Positions 3,806 to 32,874 of a stretch of DNA of 64,000 nt are shown piece by piece; within the stretch, counting starts at the first letter, position 1; each line of letters begins with the position of its first letter. The stretch comes from a virus. Lineage: Duplodnaviria; Caudoviricetes. The stretch is from positions 1 through 64,000 of IMG/VR virus record IMGVR_UViG_3300021431_000106; one strand, written 5' to 3'. The position numbers were made by a program, and so were the translations under genes. The notes under the pieces are model-generated. The model was not told the DNA's origin, made no database searches, and was given only the letters and a program-made list of their open reading frames with translations.

Positions 3806-4054
3806 ATGACAAGAACAGAATATAGAAGGTTAATTGAGTACCGAGTTAATTACATAAACAAGAGGCTCGGGACGAAGTACGAAATAGAATACGCATCTCA
3901 GTATGGCGGATGGAATATGTATGAAGAGGCGGAGGGAGGTGGACGACACAGTGGTGTGCTCGGATTCAACGGTCGAAAATCCAGTGCGGAGATGCTGAAC
4001 TATTTGGACGGCATCTTCCAACTGCTGTGTTTCTACAAACTGAAAAAAGAATAG
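3806..4054 (+). CDS. hypothetical protein
   Basis: ORF track, early array. Confidence 0.75.
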   Translation: MTRTEYRRLIEYRVNYINKRLGTKYEIEYASQYGGWNMYEEAEGGGRHSGVLGFNGRKSSAEMLNYLDGIFQLLCFYKLKKE

Positions 4055-5418: not shown

Positions 5419-5955
5419 ATGATTGACAATAAATTTGACAAGACAGAACGCTTTCTGAATATTGAAAGCAGCGACATCTTCTTCGTCAAGGAAGGAGACA
5501 AAGCAGTGGCGTGCAAGTTCGCGGAATTCGAATTTTATTGGCCTTCGTTCAACGGTAGAATGATGTTATCGAAACTTGGAATCGTCACCGCCGAAGGCAA
5601 GCGTTACAACAAAGGAGTGTATCCTATACAACTCTATGCACACCCCGAAGAAATCGTAGGTGGAGAACCTTATATTCTCAGTGTCGGCGATTGTTGTTTC
5701 CTGAATATCGATATAGTTGTCGAAAAAACGGGTATAGAAATACCAAACTTCATTGATGGCGAGCATTATGCCATCGCCTACAAATGGGACGGCTTCAAGC
5801 CCGTTGAATGCAGACTTGGCGTTTATTATGACGTGCTTAGGAGAGAGGTGAGATGCAGAGTTTCTGAAAGCAACCCTGGCGTCAAGTTCTACCTGACAAG
5901 AGAGGAATGTGCCAAAGACAATACAATGAAAGTGGTACTTTTCGCGAATAATTAA
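5419..5955 (+). CDS. hypothetical protein
   Basis: ORF track, early array. Confidence 0.8.
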   Translation: MIDNKFDKTERFLNIESSDIFFVKEGDKAVACKFAEFEFYWPSFNGRMMLSKLGIVTAEGKRYNKGVYPIQLYAHPEEIVGGEPYILSVGDCCFLNIDIVVEKTGIEIPNFIDGEHYAIAYKWDGFKPVECRLGVYYDVLRREVRCRVSESNPGVKFYLTREECAKDNTMKVVLFANN

Positions 5956-5966
5956 TCAACAACAAA

Positions 5967-6233
5967 ATGAATACAGGAGGAATAACAATGTACACAGCAG
6001 ACGACTTCAACACAGAGAACGCACCGAAAGAGATGGTGCACTTTGTAATCGACAGTGTTGTCGATTTTGACAAGCATTATAGCCGTGCGTTGGAAATCAT
6101 CGGAGCCGACAGATGTCCGCTTAAAATGGCTGACAGACGGCTTTTCGACAACATCCAAGACTGCATCGACGACTGGTGCAAAGACAATGATGATGACCCT
6201 GACAACTATGACATCGAAGAAATATTTGGATGA
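5967..6233 (+). CDS. hypothetical acidic protein
   Basis: ORF track; start may be 5988. Confidence 0.75.
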   Translation: MNTGGITMYTADDFNTENAPKEMVHFVIDSVVDFDKHYSRALEIIGADRCPLKMADRRLFDNIQDCIDDWCKDNDDDPDNYDIEEIFG

Positions 6234-6234
6234 T

Positions 6235-6390
6235 ATGGGAACAGTAACCTATCACAGACCGCCGACGCAATCGGAAATCAAATTCGGGTATGGGGCGACA
6301 CATTATTGCGACATTCCCACAGACGTATGCCTCAATAAAGGCAAAGCAAAGAAATGGCTGATGTATAATGGTCATCGATGGTATTATTAA
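6235..6390 (+). CDS. hypothetical protein (51 aa)
   Basis: ATG at 6235 (MGTVTYHRPP...) within ORF 6055..6390, just after the previous stop. Confidence 0.65.
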   Translation: MGTVTYHRPPTQSEIKFGYGATHYCDIPTDVCLNKGKAKKWLMYNGHRWYY

Positions 6391-6405
6391 CCCTTAAAAA
6401 TAATT

Positions 6406-6606
6406 ATGACAAAGTATTTCACAGAAAACGGAGTGGCGTCACACGATGACAATGCTGCCACCATCGAAGAAGCAAAAAAAGTCCTCGAAGAAAAAAAGTT
6501 ATGCGTGGCAGTCATTGACAACGATGGCGAGCCGCTTAGATGCGTGACAAGGGGAACTTACAAAGAAATGTTCCTTCTCTATAACGGGAAGGCTTTTATG
6601 GTTTAA
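6406..6606 (+). CDS. hypothetical protein
   Basis: ORF track, early array. Confidence 0.7.
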   Translation: MTKYFTENGVASHDDNAATIEEAKKVLEEKKLCVAVIDNDGEPLRCVTRGTYKEMFLLYNGKAFMV

Positions 6607-6628
6607 TAATATAAAAAAAACAAGAACA

Positions 6629-7003
6629 ATGGAAGACAGAATAAAGAAAATAGTGACCGACCGCGAGTGGCTTGTTAACTGGCTGAGCGACGCATTTGAC
6701 ACGTCACCTTGGTTTGAGGTCAAGCAATGTTTCATCCCTCTCTCCAAGGCTTCTGCGAAACGGCTTTTATGCAGAGAAGAGCGATGGGCTGACGCTCTTC
6801 TGAATGGCGGATATATTATCGTGAATGACCCCGAAGAGGAAGAAGAACACAAGGTAAAACTCGAAGACATAATCAAGGGCTTCGGGAAGTTCATCTTCGA
6901 CTGTCCAGAGCAATATGCCAATATGATGACAGAGAACTATGACTTCTATGATGCCGACTGCTTGTTGCAGATTGTGATATTCGGAGAGGTCACTTACGCA
7001 TAA
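6629..7003 (+). CDS. hypothetical protein
   Basis: ORF track, early array. Confidence 0.8.
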   Translation: MEDRIKKIVTDREWLVNWLSDAFDTSPWFEVKQCFIPLSKASAKRLLCREERWADALLNGGYIIVNDPEEEEEHKVKLEDIIKGFGKFIFDCPEQYANMMTENYDFYDADCLLQIVIFGEVTYA

Positions 7004-7028
7004 CAACTACAACTAAAAGCATGATACA

Positions 7029-7571
7029 ATGGGAAAATTAAGCAAAATAGAACAATCAAACAAGGATTTCCTTGAAAACCACGACATCTATTGCGATAAG
7101 ATGGACGATGGCGGTTGGGAGTTGGAAAGTTACACAGACGGAGGCGGAGACCAACTTATCTATATTGACAACCTCACACGAGAGGAACTGATAGAGTACC
7201 TCGAAAACTATGACGTCAACGAGGAGACAAACCTATGGTTCCCTAATGGAAGACCAGGCAATGGCGTACCATTCGACAACTACAAAGACCTATGGGACGA
7301 CATCGAGGATTGGCGTAAGTGGATGCTCAATATTGCCAAACGGATGCCCGACGGTGAAGATGTCGATGAAAAAGAAGCGACCGCAGAGGAACTGCTTGAA
7401 GATGCGGACTTGGATAAACTACAGAAGGTTTTTTTCGAGCACGCCGTTGAAGCCCCGTCCTACATCTACGACTTCATCGAGTTGATTGACGAGGACAAGT
7501 TGCACAACTTGTATGTCGAGAAACTCAGAGAAATGCTGACGTCTGATGAAATCATCGAAAATTTTCAATAA
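7029..7571 (+). CDS. hypothetical acidic protein
   Basis: ORF track, early array. Confidence 0.8.
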   Translation: MGKLSKIEQSNKDFLENHDIYCDKMDDGGWELESYTDGGGDQLIYIDNLTREELIEYLENYDVNEETNLWFPNGRPGNGVPFDNYKDLWDDIEDWRKWMLNIAKRMPDGEDVDEKEATAEELLEDADLDKLQKVFFEHAVEAPSYIYDFIELIDEDKLHNLYVEKLREMLTSDEIIENFQ

Positions 7572-20309: not shown

Positions 20310-20317
20310 AGGTATAT

Positions 20318-20522
20318 TCAGTGGTGTGGCGGAATTAGACGCTTAGCCCGTTGGTAAATAAGGTGATGCAATGCACCTGGGTGAAACTAACAGTAGACAG
20401 GGTTACTGCTTGCGGGATGATAACCAACTGCCCGAATTACCCAAGAGTTGAAACAAGGCACTCTTATAGACAAAAGAATGTACGCAGAAGCAGATGTAAG
20501 TACCCAATCTTACCACCACTGA
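20318..20522 (+). ncRNA. ~200-nt structured RNA with tRNA-like 5' and 3' ends
   Basis: tcagtggtg 20318-20326/caccactga 20514-20522; D-loop-like TGGCGGAATTAGACGC; T-arm-like gtaag-tacccaat-cttac; internal hairpins. Confidence 0.6.
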
Positions 20523-20555
20523 TTTTTAAACACAAACAATATTAAATCTATCGAA

Positions 20556-28807: not shown

Positions 28808-29473
28808 ATGGATGAGCAATATCCATACCAAAACATATCTTTGATTGATATTCCCTCAGAGGAATGGAAAGATGTCATTGGGTATGATTACCCCTACCAG
28901 ATTAGCAATTTTGGTAGGGTAAAAATAATAGAGCACTACATTCCAAACGGTCATTTTATTAAAACGAGAATTGTCAAACAGAGGCTGAACAAGAATCAGT
29001 ACCCAATAGTTTCATTACCCAAAAATGGTATACATAGACCAGTAAGTGTACACAGGCTTGTTGCTTTGTACTTCGTTGACAACCCTGAGAAACGTGACGT
29101 TGTAGACCATATAGATACTGATAGAAAAAATAACCTTTTTACAAATCTAAGATGGTGCTCAACAAAAGATAATGTGAACAACCCAATAACAAAGCAGCAT
29201 TTATCACAAAGTGCAAAAAGGTTTTTTATGTCCGAGCGTGGGAAAGAGCATCAAAAGTTCATTTCTGAACTTGCAAACAAACCAGAAGCAAAAGAGAAAA
29301 GAATAAAGAAAGTTCAAAAAGCGGTCATACAAAAAGATTTGGAAGGAAATTTTATAAAAGAGTTCAAAAGTGTGAAAGATGCAATGGAGCAGACCCATTG
29401 TTATGGTGTCGGAAAATGCTGTAGAAAGATATGGAAATCATCACACGGATTTATTTGGGAATTTAAAAATTAA
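28808..29473 (+). CDS. NUMOD4-HNH-NUMOD1 homing endonuclease
   Basis: EEWKDVIGY..YQISNFGRVK; VHRLVALYF; VDHIDTDRKNNLFTNLRW; C-terminal KAVIQKDLEGNFIKEFKS. Confidence 0.9.
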   Translation: MDEQYPYQNISLIDIPSEEWKDVIGYDYPYQISNFGRVKIIEHYIPNGHFIKTRIVKQRLNKNQYPIVSLPKNGIHRPVSVHRLVALYFVDNPEKRDVVDHIDTDRKNNLFTNLRWCSTKDNVNNPITKQHLSQSAKRFFMSERGKEHQKFISELANKPEAKEKRIKKVQKAVIQKDLEGNFIKEFKSVKDAMEQTHCYGVGKCCRKIWKSSHGFIWEFKN

Positions 29474-29480
29474 ATAAATT

Positions 29481-30332
29481 ATGAACGAAGTAGCACAGTA
29501 CAACAACGCAAAAGACCTGAAAGTCGCCCTTTCAAGCGAGTCGGTGGCAAAGAGATTTTCCGATATGCTCGGGAAACGTGCTCCCGGATTTATCACCTCT
29601 ATCACCAATGTGGTGAGCAACAACGACCTGCTCAAAAAAGCAGACGTCAACTCTATCATTCTTGCCGCAGCAACCGCCGCCGCCTTGGATTTGCCTATCA
29701 ATCCTAACCTCGGCTATGCAGCAATAATCCCATTCAAAGACAACAAAACTGGCTCATGCACAGCGACTTGCCAAATCATGCGCTCGGGATGGGTAGAACT
29801 CGCTCAACGTAGCGGCCAGATTGTCCGCCTCGCAAACGAGATTGTCTATGAGGGCGAACTTGTGTCACATAACCGTTTCACCGATGAGTACGTGTTCGAC
29901 GAAACAAAACGCAAGTCTGACAAGATTATCGGCTATCTCGCCTACGCAAAACTTTCCAACGGTTTTGAAAAATACGTCTTTTGGGACGTTGAGAAGTGCA
30001 AGCAGCACGGACTCCGTTTCTCTCAAACATTCAAACGTGGTTACGGTCTTTGGAAAGATGACTTTAACAGCATGGCGCTCAAGTCCGTTCTCAAACATCT
30101 GATTACCAAGTATTTGCCAAAGTCCCTTGAAATGCAGATGGCTATCGAGCGTGACCAGGCCGCCCTGTCTGGGGATATTGACAATCCACAAGTCCACTAC
30201 GTTGACAACGGAGGAGAAATTCCCGTCGAGACGGAGCCGCAGGACTTCCAAGAGGCGGAGGTTGTTGACGAGCAGACAGGAGAGGTGCAGCAGGGCGGCG
30301 CCAACGGTCAGGCGACAATGTTCGACAAGTAA
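29481..30332 (+). CDS. recT: RecT-family single-strand annealing recombinase
   Basis: AAALDLPINPNLGYAAIIPF, QIMRSGWVELAQRSGQ, IIGYLAY, WKDDFNSMALKSVLK. Confidence 0.9.
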   Translation: MNEVAQYNNAKDLKVALSSESVAKRFSDMLGKRAPGFITSITNVVSNNDLLKKADVNSIILAAATAAALDLPINPNLGYAAIIPFKDNKTGSCTATCQIMRSGWVELAQRSGQIVRLANEIVYEGELVSHNRFTDEYVFDETKRKSDKIIGYLAYAKLSNGFEKYVFWDVEKCKQHGLRFSQTFKRGYGLWKDDFNSMALKSVLKHLITKYLPKSLEMQMAIERDQAALSGDIDNPQVHYVDNGGEIPVETEPQDFQEAEVVDEQTGEVQQGGANGQATMFDK

Positions 30333-30359
30333 ATTATTAACCATTAAAATTACATAGTT

Positions 30360-30698
30360 ATGGCAACTACACTAATGACAATGTTCGCGACCTTCGTCGC
30401 TTTCGTCCTTGGAGTGATGACTATCACCGAGGCTGTCAACAAACTCTTCAAGGTGGATAACTCCACCGTTAAACTCATTATCTCATGGGTGCTTTCGCTC
30501 GCACTCGCTGCCGCAGGCTTTGCCCTTCAATTGGGCTTCTTTGCCGATTGCGGAGACGTTTCTCAGTGGCAGGGATGGGTCAAAGCATGTCTCATTGGTA
30601 TCGGCTGTGGTCTCTGCGCCAACGGGCTCTACGACCGTAACGAGATGTGGCATCTACTTGAATTGATTTTTCCCATTTTCAAGGCAAAGAAAGAATAG
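30360..30698 (+). CDS. small multi-TM membrane protein (holin-like)
   Basis: Three hydrophobic segments; GLCANGLYD motif; basic C-terminus. Confidence 0.6.
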   Translation: MATTLMTMFATFVAFVLGVMTITEAVNKLFKVDNSTVKLIISWVLSLALAAAGFALQLGFFADCGDVSQWQGWVKACLIGIGCGLCANGLYDRNEMWHLLELIFPIFKAKKE

Positions 30699-30735
30699 GT
30701 GTTCCACGACCTCCATAAGTAAAGCCTAGGTGGTT

Positions 30736-30817
30736 GCCACGGTAGTTTAATCCACTAGAATGGAGTTGGCAAAATGACGTTCAACGTCCGATGTCGGTTC
30801 GAGTCCGGCCTGTGGCA
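30736..30817 (+). tRNA. degenerate tRNA-like element (non-canonical, UCA hairpin)
   Basis: Acceptor gccacgg/ctgtggc, T-arm gtcgg-TTCGAGT-ccggc; hairpin gacgt-TCA-acgtc before a 4-nt variable loop; extra 13 nt after the D-arm. Confidence 0.5.
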
Positions 30818-30925
30818 CAAAGGAGGTTCTCGACACCTATTGATAAACTGGACTACTTAAGTTCCGCAAACGAGAGAGCACATCACTGAGGAGGCTTCGG
30901 ATGGCAGCCGGGAAAGACCGGCAAA

Positions 30926-30965
30926 GGTCCGCGGCCGCAAGGCTGTAACACTAGGAACGCGGACC
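30926..30965 (+). ncRNA. structured motif, copy 1
   Basis: ggtccgcg/cgcggacc stem enclosing gcc-GCAA-ggc and tgtaacactaggaa. Confidence 0.55.
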
Positions 30966-30970
30966 TACAA

Positions 30971-31045
30971 GGGATGGCGGATGCAGCGAGAGTGCATCAG
31001 AGATAAGACATAGCACGGAGGGGGGTGCAATTCCCTCCCATCCCA
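30971..31045 (+). tRNA. tRNA-like element lacking an anticodon stem
   Basis: Acceptor gggatgg/ccatccc+A, T-arm ggggg-TGCAATT-ccctc, 6-bp gatgca/tgcatc arm; anticodon region unpaired. Confidence 0.5.
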
Positions 31046-31072
31046 CAAAGATATAGGAGGTTCGCCAAAGCC

Positions 31073-31115
31073 TGCCGTGTGGCCGCAAGGCTGATAACAT
31101 TAGGGACACACGGCA
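31073..31115 (+). ncRNA. structured motif, copy 2
   Basis: tgccgtgt/acacggca stem enclosing gcc-GCAA-ggc and tgataacattagggac; outer stem differs from copy 1 but still pairs. Confidence 0.55.
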
Positions 31116-31205
31116 CCCTCACGCCGCCATCGGGGGAACGATGGGATGCCTGAAAAGTAAACTCCGAGGCATTAGTCCGAGTGGTACCAAATCCCACCGT
31201 GAGGG
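31116..31205 (+). ncRNA. third cloverleaf-like element
   Basis: ccctcacg/cgtgaggg closing ccatcg/cgatgg, atgcct/aggcat and gtgg/ccac arms. Confidence 0.45.
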
Positions 31206-31252
31206 CAAAAGAACAAAAGAGAAAGTACAAGTAATATCAAATAATTAATAAA

Positions 31253-31735
31253 ATGGAAGAAAGAAAACAAGAACAGCGCCCGCAGTATTTTTACTTCAAC
31301 GATGAAGGCAAACTTGTCGTTGAAAGCAACAAGGGTGTTTGGGTTGACGGCGAGCAGCACGTTAAGATGTACGGCAACTTCACTTGCAACGCAAAGACGA
31401 TGGGGATTATTATCTCACAATTAAAAAATATTCCGGCATTTATTTCACGTGAGAAGTGTAAAGTAGTGATTGATGTAATTACGGGAGAAAAAGAATGCCT
31501 TACTGAAGGCATTGGGTGTATAATAAACCCAAATGCTGAACAGGCAGGGCTTCTGTCTGAAATCAGTCACAAAGATGGCAAAATTGAAAAACTCAACAAT
31601 GAAATCAAAAAATTAAACAAGCAGTTAGACGATGCTTATGACCAAAGAGATGCAGAACACGAAGCGATAGAGCAATTCAACTCCCTCCCGTGGTACAAGC
31701 GTATCTTCAAAAAAATAGAAATAAAAAACAATTAA
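31253..31735 (+). CDS. hypothetical protein with C-terminal coiled coil
   Basis: ORF track; ends FNSLPWYKRIFKK. Confidence 0.75.
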   Translation: MEERKQEQRPQYFYFNDEGKLVVESNKGVWVDGEQHVKMYGNFTCNAKTMGIIISQLKNIPAFISREKCKVVIDVITGEKECLTEGIGCIINPNAEQAGLLSEISHKDGKIEKLNNEIKKLNKQLDDAYDQRDAEHEAIEQFNSLPWYKRIFKKIEIKNN

Positions 31736-31792
31736 ATCAACACAATTATGAACAGAGAAGAGTATCATTAACGGCATACTATCAAGAGAAAA

Positions 31793-32539
31793 ATGACAAC
31801 TATCCACGTTTGCTCTTCAAACTCATCCGCAAACGGCTACATTATAGAAAGCGGAGGACAGTCCCTTGTGCTCGAACTCGGGTGCAAGACAAGTGATTAT
31901 TACAACATCTTAATACGGAAAGGAGGTTTGGTGGCTGGCTGTTTAGCGAGCCACCGATGAAGCCACTCTGACCATCTTAACCAATCCACCGCAAAAGAGT
32001 TCATCAGACGAGGCATCCCAGTGTTCTTCGGAGAGAAAGTCTACGAGGAACTGCTGAAAGAAGGCTCGATTAAGGGCATAAAGCCGCTTCCTATGGCTCA
32101 AAAGACGTTTGTCGGGGGATTTACCATCCAGCCCTTTGAAGTCGCCCACAACGTGCCAAATTACGGCTTTCTGATAGTAACGCCGACAAAGGAGCGTATC
32201 GTTTTCGTCACGGACGCTATGGGGTGCCCGTACAACTTCAAGGACATCGACTGCATAATGGTCGAATGCAACCACGATGACGACACGCTCATCGACAACT
32301 TCGTCAACGCGGAACAGAGCCGTAGTCACCCCGAGAACCACATGGGGCTTGAAGATTGCATTGACTTCTGCCGGCGTAACGTTTCATTGAGCACAAAGCA
32401 GATAATACTCATACACTTGAGCCATCAAAACATCAACGAGGGTTTCGCCCTTAAATCTGTGCAAGACGCCCTTCCGCTTGTGAATGTGGCGGTCGCCCAC
32501 AGCGGAGATACATTTGAAATCGAAAGTGATAACTTCTAA
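31793..32539 (+). CDS. metallo-beta-lactamase-fold nuclease interrupted by in-frame TGA (31958-31960)
   Basis: MTTIHVCSSNSSANGYII...GCLASHR*SHSDHL... continues in the same frame into ORF 32021..32539 (VAHNVPNYGF, FVTD, MVECNHD, LIHLSHQN). Confidence 0.8.
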
Positions 32540-32550
32540 TTATTAACAAT

Positions 32551-32874
32551 ATGAATATAAAGACATTAAACGAAATAGTATCTATTGTAAAGCAGAAAAC
32601 GCGTCCATTGGAGTATGACATTTCCGAATGGAATATGTTTGTAAAAGAAAGATTTACTACACACGACCACGAAACAGTTTTGTCTTTTATACAAGAAAAC
32701 GAGGCTCACACAGTTTGTCATGTAGTTGTGGTGTCCCTTATATGGGGTGTCGTACCTGACGATGGTATAGCAATAGCAGATGTATATAGGGATGGTTGTG
32801 TTGATTATTACGGTGAAATTTCAAATGTAAGCGGAGTGGACAGAACTTTACTTTTGTTCACATTAAATTCATAA
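32551..32874 (+). CDS. hypothetical protein
   Basis: ORF track. Confidence 0.65.
   Translation: MNIKTLNEIVSIVKQKTRPLEYDISEWNMFVKERFTTHDHETVLSFIQENEAHTVCHVVVVSLIWGVVPDDGIAIADVYRDGCVDYYGEISNVSGVDRTLLLFTLNS

Follow-up and report, generated by a model that had tools for sequence, protein, structure and literature searches.

What is encoded between two phage genes where no credible open reading frame (ORF) is found and where several structures resemble transfer RNAs (tRNAs) that lack the arm needed to decode? The question is raised by positions 30695-31252 of the window, that is, of the whole stretch of DNA analysed here, which is the first 64 kb of the 83,108-bp IMG/VR virus record IMGVR_UViG_3300021431_000106 and comes from a rumen-type phage with direct terminal repeats. 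The region holds no credible ORF and is flanked by + strand genes on both sides. An earlier note, made from the letters of the window, had described it as an array of degenerate tRNA-like cloverleafs alternating with other structured motifs. On comparative sequence evidence, one of these cloverleafs, element 3, belongs to a tRNA-like family that is conserved, uncatalogued and without an anticodon, and is not a decayed gene.

A tRNA-like family and its companions

Related loci (L-numbers) were collected via RecT and the membrane protein encoded upstream of the array, in sets of 7, 13 and 46. A search with a sequence box led from element 3 to a homologue in L135 (L166 carries the same sequence), and a pattern drawn from both copies led to a third lineage, L165. 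In the three-way alignment, three helices supply 18 pairs; pairing holds in 54 of 54 cells, and half of the pairs (9 of 18) have changed on both sides; none of 500 shuffles reached this, and slid controls were 35-52 % paired. Element 3 is thus under selection for its structure. The 5′ half consists of an 8-bp closing stem, an invariant CCG and a 6-bp arm with an invariant GGGGAA loop. In the 3′ half, a variable arm (7 bp with a 15-nt loop here, 5 bp with a 5-nt loop in L135, essentially absent in L165) is followed by an invariant CGA and a 4-bp GUGG/CCAC T-like stem with the 9-nt loop UAYCRAAYY. The discriminator differs among the homologues (C, A, G). Model R1 of this family scores its four members, L135 and L166 being one sequence, at 92-102 bits, and elsewhere reaches at most 19.5 bits in 0.93 Mb searched; the weak matches in 349 kb of relatives include a tRNA-Leu (L036, 17.1 bits) and a tRNA-capped RNA (L056, 16.6 bits). 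A scan of genome contigs for element 3 gave at least 80 loci, and the 80 listed are all chance matches by R1. The word degenerate does not suit an element with this record of compensated change.

Elsewhere in the window, at 20316-20526, there is a closed tRNA-capped RNA with a 9-bp terminal helix, a D-like hairpin and an insert of about 150 nt. The loop of its T-like arm, GUAAG-UACCCAAU-CUUAC, resembles that of element 3, UACCAAAUC.

Element 3 is the last of the structured modules in the array, which with its flanking genes is laid out as follows.

30360-30698, + strand: membrane-protein gene (112 aa), immediately upstream of the array
30694-30714, + strand: leader, 5′ arm of the helix enclosing element 1 in the minimum-free-energy fold; overlaps the stop codon of the ORF at 30360-30698
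30736-30817, + strand: element 1, tRNA-like; Rfam tRNA score 33.3 bits, threshold 29
30821-30840, + strand: Box 1 (AGGAGGUUCUCGACACCUAU), 3′ arm of the flanking helix and a conserved box; also in L165 at about 3806-3822
30841-30925, + strand: hairpin-rich spacer, from the fold, including the GCCGG-GAAAGA-CCGGC hairpin
30926-30965, + strand: motif A, copy 1; 57.3 bits with model R2; ends 5 nt before element 2
30971-31045, + strand: element 2, tRNA-like by its fold; an ARAGORN call at 70 % ends at 31046
31055-31073, + strand: Box 2 (AGGAGGUUCGCCAAAGCCU), conserved sequence box; identical or near-identical in L135:7100, L161/L062 and L165:3849-3863
31074-31114, + strand: motif A, copy 2; 62 bits with R2; ends 1 nt before element 3
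31116-31205, + strand: element 3, anticodon-less cloverleaf; homologues at L135:7017-7091 (the same in L166) and L165:3885-3960
31206-31252, + strand: A-rich trailer (CAAAAGAAC...), read from the sequence, up to the ATG of the ORF at 31253-31735
31253-31735, + strand: ORF of 160 aa, immediately downstream of the array

The arrangement reported in the earlier note is borne out. Its three elements with acceptor and T-arm lie at 30736-30817, 30971-31045 and 31116-31205 on the coding strand, and none has a canonical anticodon arm, with a 5-bp stem and a 7-nt loop that carries U33 and a purine at 37. The CAAA-type linkers are present (A-CAAAG after elements 1 and 2, CAAAAG after element 3), as are the GAAAGA hairpin, at 30907-30922, and the two copies of a 40-nt motif, here motif A. 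The long helix that had been drawn around element 1 appears in the minimum-free-energy fold as 30694-30714 paired with 30821-30840, and the repeated aggaggttc is found as AGGAGGTTC at 30821 and 31055, with one further occurrence in the 83-kb genome. Small ORFs behind both AGGAGGU boxes were considered and rejected on account of a spacing of 13-16 nt and a length of six codons or fewer. Read along the + strand, the order is element 1, Box 1, hairpins, GAAAGA hairpin, motif A, element 2, Box 2, motif A and element 3.

The + strand, which is the coding strand, folds more stably than the - strand (whole-stretch z of -2.73 and -1.97). This stronger fold and the G-U pairs both favour the + strand. 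Folded singly, the elements adopt the described shapes with z of -1.9 to -2.9. In all three the acceptor and T stack amounts to 12 bp (7+5, 7+5 and 8+4 in elements 1, 2 and 3), and a stable hairpin ends right 5′ of elements 2 and 3. These two elements show no detectable sequence similarity to each other, their alignment score being below the shuffled mean. The first 14 nt of the leader after the stop codon are kept in L040 and L043, where they pair with another downstream partner around another hairpin.

How far the elements score as ordinary tRNAs, a point that the earlier note had raised against its own proposal, depends on the element. With the Rfam tRNA model (RF00005, gathering threshold 29 bits), the score of element 1 is 33.3 bits; neither element 2 nor element 3 matches this model even at E≤10. 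A search of the whole window at Rfam gathering scores gave nothing, and at E up to 10 on 30500-31400 the tRNA match of element 1 was the only one. ARAGORN reports no tRNA anywhere in the window with default settings. Lowering its thresholds to 90, 80 and 70 % brings out 30736-30818, 31116-31206 and 30954-31046 in turn. All three calls agree with an element at the 3′ end and the first two calls also at the 5′ end, and the anticodons are mutually inconsistent. The phage's sole tRNA called by ARAGORN is a tRNA-Met(CAT) outside the window (genome 75083-75159, - strand; 40.6 bits), with an unusual T-loop.

Comparison of element 1 rests on two sequences, that of the window and a homologue in L002 (5251-5333; 85 % identity across 92 aligned nt), a locus whose RecT is 96 % identical. 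An IMG/VR scan with a 16-mer of element 1 gave 42 matches, of which only the contig of L002 was relevant. Element 1 has a 7-bp acceptor, a four-base variable loop and a T-arm, GUCGG-UUCGAGU-CCGGC, that are all canonical. Its D-stem is GUUU/AAAU, with AGUUGGCA and an inserted 4-bp hairpin in the D-loop. Read jointly, the two sequences would have a canonical D-arm (GUUU / AGUUGGYA / AAAU) once the 15-16-nt D-loop hairpin is set aside; this hairpin keeps the same closing U-A in both, and the stems are wholly different (CCA/UGG and GACC/GGUC). In the place of the anticodon arm there are 24 nt where the Rfam model expects 15, including a stub of 5 bp with a 3-nt loop, GACGU-UCA-ACGUC, that is 6 nt short of a real anticodon arm. 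The stub in L002, GACGC-CCC-GCGUC, differs by one compensatory pair (U-A to C-G), and its loop is not conserved. The RNA thus retains the top half and the corner of a tRNA and cannot decode.

For element 2 the comparative basis is one sequence, no homologue of the complete element having been found. A 7-bp acceptor is stacked on a 5-bp T-arm, GGGGG-UGCAAUU-CCCUC, and the discriminator A is followed by CAAAG. The D-position hairpin has 6 bp, GAUGCA-GCGAGAG-UGCAUC, with a 7-nt loop that holds a possible C-GAGA-G tetraloop, and resembles the GNRA-capped hairpins of relatives; the anticodon region is 21 unpaired nt. The T-loop variant UGCAAWU is found at no fewer than 80 phage loci of IMG/VR, some of them tRNAs whose anticodon loop carries CAU (Met-type). 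Many of the loci with such T-arms, which have G at position 55 (L295-L374), are closed tRNA-capped RNAs with large inserts from many unrelated phages, and one of them, L308, has a tmRNA-like 5′ end (tmRNA, transfer-messenger RNA). A 130-nt tRNA-capped RNA also lies upstream of the membrane-protein gene in L056 (2100-2243), with the acceptor GGAGAUG/CAUCUCC and the T-arm GUGGG-UGCAAAU-CCCAC; it contains GCAAGGCUAUCGAUAAUGUCC, which is like the core of motif A.

In motif A, an outer stem of 8 bp encloses the hairpin GCC-GCAA-GGC, and the 3′ strand is 14 nt long. The two copies in the window share a 13-mer 148 nt apart, and the core pattern appeared in none of 100 window shuffles. A third copy is found in L165. 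The inner GCC-GCAA-GGC-UG and the 8-bp outer stem are common to the three copies, in which 97 % of pairs are kept and five of the eight outer-stem pairs have changed on both sides; the 3′ strand UAACAYUAGGRA is common to the two window copies only. Thus, covariation among homologues, the absence of which the earlier note would have taken as counting against it, is found both in element 3 and in the 40-nt motif. In IMG/VR, the core pattern of motif A had no match and a looser version had nine, all by chance and inside ORFs; a search of 349 kb of related loci with model R2 gave no additional copy.

Module order in related phages

Several of the smaller modules recur in relatives, in other combinations. 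The GAAAGA hairpin has a homologue at L165:4006-4030, GUCGG-GAAAGA-CCGAC, with a compensatory change of C-G to U-A. Box 1 is present in L165 as GGUUCUCGACAMCCUAU. At the sequence level, Box 2 (GGUUCGCCAAAGCC) is shared with L165, L135 and L062/L161, and its GAGGUUCGCC core also with L002 and L045. In L165, a real tRNA (54 bits) is followed by about 860 nt of ORF-poor structured sequence, in which a long ORF-poor stretch leads to Box 1, Box 2, element 3, hairpins, the GAAAGA hairpin, motif A and a GNRA hairpin, the last of these taking the place of element 2. In L135 the order is element 3, Box 2 and hairpins, and element 3 stands there without motif A. L002 has element 1 alone and lacks the approximately 400 nt that hold elements 2 and 3. 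Since order and content differ among the window, L165, L135 and L002, the modules appear to be self-contained and exchanged between phages. Many relatives have GNRA-capped hairpins of 10-13 bp (mostly 12-13), for example GGAUGCAGACCCC-GAGA-GGGGUCUGCAUCC; these are found mostly just 5′ of the next gene and are then followed by AC[ACG]AA[GC], and their stems differ from one another by compensated changes.

The slot after the membrane-protein gene is a tRNA hot spot. Some relatives have real tRNAs here (Ser, Leu, Gln, Pro), others tRNAs with abnormal anticodon regions (an 8-nt loop in L012/L014, 13 and 49 nt in L003/L021) or a further tRNA look-alike of 32.6 bits (L018/L019), and others again GNRA hairpins only. 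None of 28 distinct real tRNAs of related phages has an encoded CCA; N-CAAA or N-CUAA follows. Elements 1 and 2 and the GNRA hairpins have the common trailer A-C-AAAG, like the N-CAAA after the real tRNAs of relatives. The odd tRNA of L012/L014 (2870-2942) has the 8-nt anticodon loop AACCAGUA, for which ARAGORN reports '???' and ccag. Its ACCAGU is, in L014, the exact reverse complement of ACUGGU (cAC UGG Uga) in the mRNA of an MBL-fold hydrolase, just before an in-frame TGA (L014:4105-4113); the chance of such a match is below 1 % by rough estimate, and no consistent decoding scheme was found.

The genes upstream of the array include an HNH endonuclease and RecT, and those downstream an MBL-fold hydrolase and a resolvase; on the favoured reading, the array lies within the early, recombination-gene operon of the phage. 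Only one of the related loci collected, the metagenome contig L033, has the whole stretch, at 99.8 % identity. This contig differs from the window at about 40 positions within 80 nt at 30164-30240, the 3′ end of RecT, a sharp mosaic boundary. Blastn of 30650-31260 against 50,697 phage records gave no match. One relative, L004, is alone in having a HEARO-like RNA (5935-6159), whose 69 bits fall short of the gathering score of 83. Immediately after it comes an ORF of 412 aa (6238-7476) with an N-terminus of IscB type, next to a tRNA-Ser and the MBL hydrolase gene.

Processing signals and rival explanations

The earlier note had proposed that the tRNA-like modules act as RNase P/Z processing signals that release small RNAs. 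The 12-bp stacks, the coding strand, the trailers and the hairpins on the 5′ side all fit this proposal, and cleavage itself is its predicted part. That the elements release small RNAs and define mRNA ends in this way is the reading we favour, and we regard it as standing at about the point of balance. No + strand terminator-like site is found in 29400-32600 and the promoter-like matches there are weak, so that the simplest assumption is co-transcription with the flanking genes, as an array of independent RNA modules. All three look-alikes have lost the anticodon arm and retain the acceptor/T stack that serves RNase P, RNase Z and the CCA-adding enzyme as a ruler; element 1 retains the D-loop/T-loop corner as well. 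A stack of 12 bp is the length that RNase P is established to measure (PMC4919913). The 5′ cuts, before 30736, 30971 and 31116, would be made by RNase P; the 3′ cuts would fall behind the discriminator, at about 30817, 31045 and 31206, and be made by an endonuclease of the RNase Z type. These cuts would detach the upstream RecT/membrane-protein message, release three tRNA-like RNAs and two spacer RNAs of about 152 nt and about 69 nt, and give the downstream message a 5′ leader that is defined and A-rich. Because motif A ends 1 nt and 5 nt before elements 3 and 2, respectively, it would cap the 3′ end of the RNA freed upstream by RNase P. The two spacers look like paralogous small RNAs, since each starts with CAAAG..AGGAGGUUC and ends in motif A.

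Several features weigh against this reading. Elements 2 and 3 fall outside the Rfam tRNA model even at the permissive cutoff; the T-like loop of element 3 is of 9 nt, with a conserved U-Y mismatch in place of the fifth pair, and its trailer is CAAAAG and not ACAAAG. As the close relative L002 lacks the approximately 400 nt with elements 2 and 3, these are dispensable for expressing the flanking genes. The conserved GGGGAA loops and GGUUCGCCAAAGCC boxes would be unneeded for simple punctuation and hint at a further function. It is conceivable, if rather doubtful, that the element-3 family, motif A, the GGUUCGCCAAAGCC box and the 12-13-bp GNRA minihelices form a shufflable toolkit of tRNA-capped modules with trans-acting functions beyond passive cut marks. 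The modules could then, for instance, neutralize a host factor directed at the corner or acceptor end of tRNA, or assist ribosomes in getting past a conserved TGA mini-insert in the MBL-fold hydrolase gene.

The main rival, which is unlikely on balance but compatible with processing as the route to maturity, is that the matured look-alikes are trans-acting mimics. They would titrate a host or phage factor that recognizes the corner or the acceptor end of tRNA, candidates being a defence toxin that targets tRNAs, a modification enzyme or proteins of the SmpB/EF-Tu type. As to the second suggestion of the earlier note, decoys for tRNA-targeting defence, the results speak neither for nor against it. 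The GGGGAA loop, the CCG junction and CGAGUGGUA of element 3 are invariant in three lineages, beyond what a cut signal needs. Element 1 keeps the equivalents of D-loop G18/G19 and a canonical T-loop, and where relatives share a tRNA body at the same locus, its anticodon region is hypervariable (L012/L014 against L021). Phage tRNAs have been proposed to counter anticodon nucleases (PMC10264068), and a TLD-only tmRNA of mycobacteriophage DS6A has been suggested to titrate SmpB (PMC4131195). However, an anticodon nuclease requires the anticodon loop, which is missing in all elements; they could therefore be decoys only for acceptor- or corner-directed factors. A common aminoacylation identity is also unlikely, because there is no G3-U70 and the discriminator is not conserved, and in none of the loci examined does a linked defence or partner gene accompany the array. 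A single large folded non-coding RNA of 520 nt, an 'ornate' phage RNA with the tRNA-like parts as domains, is improbable. It would account for the density of GNRA and GNRA-like loops (GCAA twice, GAGA, GAAAGA, GGGGAA), which are typical of tertiary contacts, for the long helix that closes around element 1 and for the extent of structured sequence in L165. There is, however, no Rfam match, including to ROOL and GOLLD, even at E≤10, and a single tertiary fold would not survive the module shuffling seen in L165, L135 and L002.

A role at the level of DNA, with single-strand hairpins for replication initiation or recombination or as a small non-autonomous mobile element, is very unlikely. The array does sit in a recombination/replication module (RecT, HNH endonuclease, resolvase), a related phage has an IscB/HEARO-type element nearby, and the stretch is an insertion relative to L002; a DNA-level role would explain why about 400 nt are found here and are missing there. 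On the other hand, the G-U pairs of several stems would be C-A mismatches on the opposite strand, GNRA tetraloops and a canonical T-loop are features of RNA, and the stretch has no terminal inverted repeats and no target duplications; between the two copies of motif A the loop is constant and the stem varies, contrary to the pattern of end hairpins bound by transposases. Decay of tRNA pseudogenes without function might be suspected at a tRNA hot spot where ARAGORN calls appear only below the default threshold, yet it is scarcely credible: the stems are Watson-Crick throughout, save for one G-U pair in the acceptor of element 1, and the loops are not those of tRNAs, the reverse of neutral decay. 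It is contradicted for element 3 by the nine double-sided compensatory pairs in three lineages, and for element 1 by the inserted hairpin that is rebuilt with a different stem in L002. Equally remote, and rejected here, is a function of element 1 as a UGA suppressor, by which the MBL-fold hydrolase gene 1 kb downstream would be translated past its in-frame TGA. In favour of it, GU-UCA-AC is one way to draw the stub loop, and the TGA is present at the same site in relatives. L002, however, has the same TGA with the stub loop CCC; L043, a short contig of 1448 nt, has the TGA and no tRNA-like RNA in the slot; L003 and L018 have odd tRNAs and an intact hydrolase gene; and the stub is 6 nt short. 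TGA is moreover an ordinary stop in this phage, ending 37 of 120 long ORFs. Reassignment of a stop codon across the genome was likewise rejected, code 11 giving 91 % ORF coverage.

The hydrolase gene itself (window 31793-32539) has its in-frame TGA inside the HxHxDH motif. In divergent relatives the mini-insertions at this site are a multiple of three in length and always start with TGA: 6 nt in the window and in L043:1033-1104 (TGAAGC), 9 nt in L014:4078-4149 (TGACGAAGG) and 15 nt in L002:7723-7806. The site is intact in L040, L003/L021/L057, L018/L019 and L004. As the proteins of the window and L014 are only about 53 % identical, the TGA is recurrent and not a one-off pseudogene; a ribosomal hop, readthrough or a scar are possibilities.

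Relation to known systems

The closest described phage tRNA mimic is the TLD-only tmRNA of DS6A, which like the array elements is phage-encoded and has an acceptor and T-arm and no anticodon stem-loop. The array differs from tmRNA in lacking G3-U70, pair 3-70 being C-G in elements 1 and 3 and G-C in element 2, and the GGGG...UUCGAC 5′ signature, and in the stable 6-bp D-position hairpin of elements 2 and 3. The window has no default ARAGORN call and no Rfam match for tmRNA. For ROOL, GOLLD and HEARO/omega RNA there is likewise no Rfam match, in the window at gathering score or in 30500-31400 at E≤10.

Among phage tRNA genes, the T4 tRNA cluster also gives rise to stable RNAs, 'species 1/2'. 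RNase P cuts non-tRNA substrates, including mRNAs and phage RNAs such as the C4 antisense RNA of P1/P7 and phage M3 RNA (PMC11143913). The array is like these genes and substrates in its tRNA hot spot, the lack of an encoded CCA and the tRNA-like terminal helices; it differs in that no element decodes and only element 1 reaches the tRNA threshold.

In the literature searched, neither such arrays in phages nor tRNA-like processing signals as a regular feature of phage operons have been described. What is new is an uncatalogued, non-decoding tRNA-like family supported by covariation (element 3), a covarying companion hairpin (motif A), and evidence for modules that move and change their order between related phages, at a locus where other relatives carry real tRNAs. 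Should the predicted cuts take place, phages would be using host tRNA-maturation enzymes to shape their transcripts and make small RNAs, and many 'failed' tRNA predictions in phage genomes would be explained. Should the elements act in trans, they would represent a new class of phage tRNA mimic.

Processing signals that resemble tRNAs are textbook knowledge for mitochondria. In those of plants, t-elements and acceptor-like stem-loops mark mRNA ends in keeping with the tRNA-punctuation model, and cuts by RNase P and RNase Z at t-elements, proposed or shown, generate the ends of mRNAs together with small RNAs that are stable (Forner et al., 2007; PMC1920247). These t-elements and the non-tRNA RNase P substrates of phages are the nearest described counterparts of the array. 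The likeness to the array lies in non-canonical cloverleafs and stem-loops within polycistronic transcripts, with a T-arm beside an acceptor-like stem in each element (a 4-bp T-like stem in element 3), and GGUUCGAGUCC of element 1 is an exact match to the t-element T-arm motif GGTTCRANYCC. The array differs in belonging to a phage of bacteria and not to an organelle, and in being known here from its sequence. Unlike t-elements, its tRNA-like modules alternate with conserved modules that are not tRNA-like (motif A, Box 1 and Box 2), and element 3 has invariant loops of its own.

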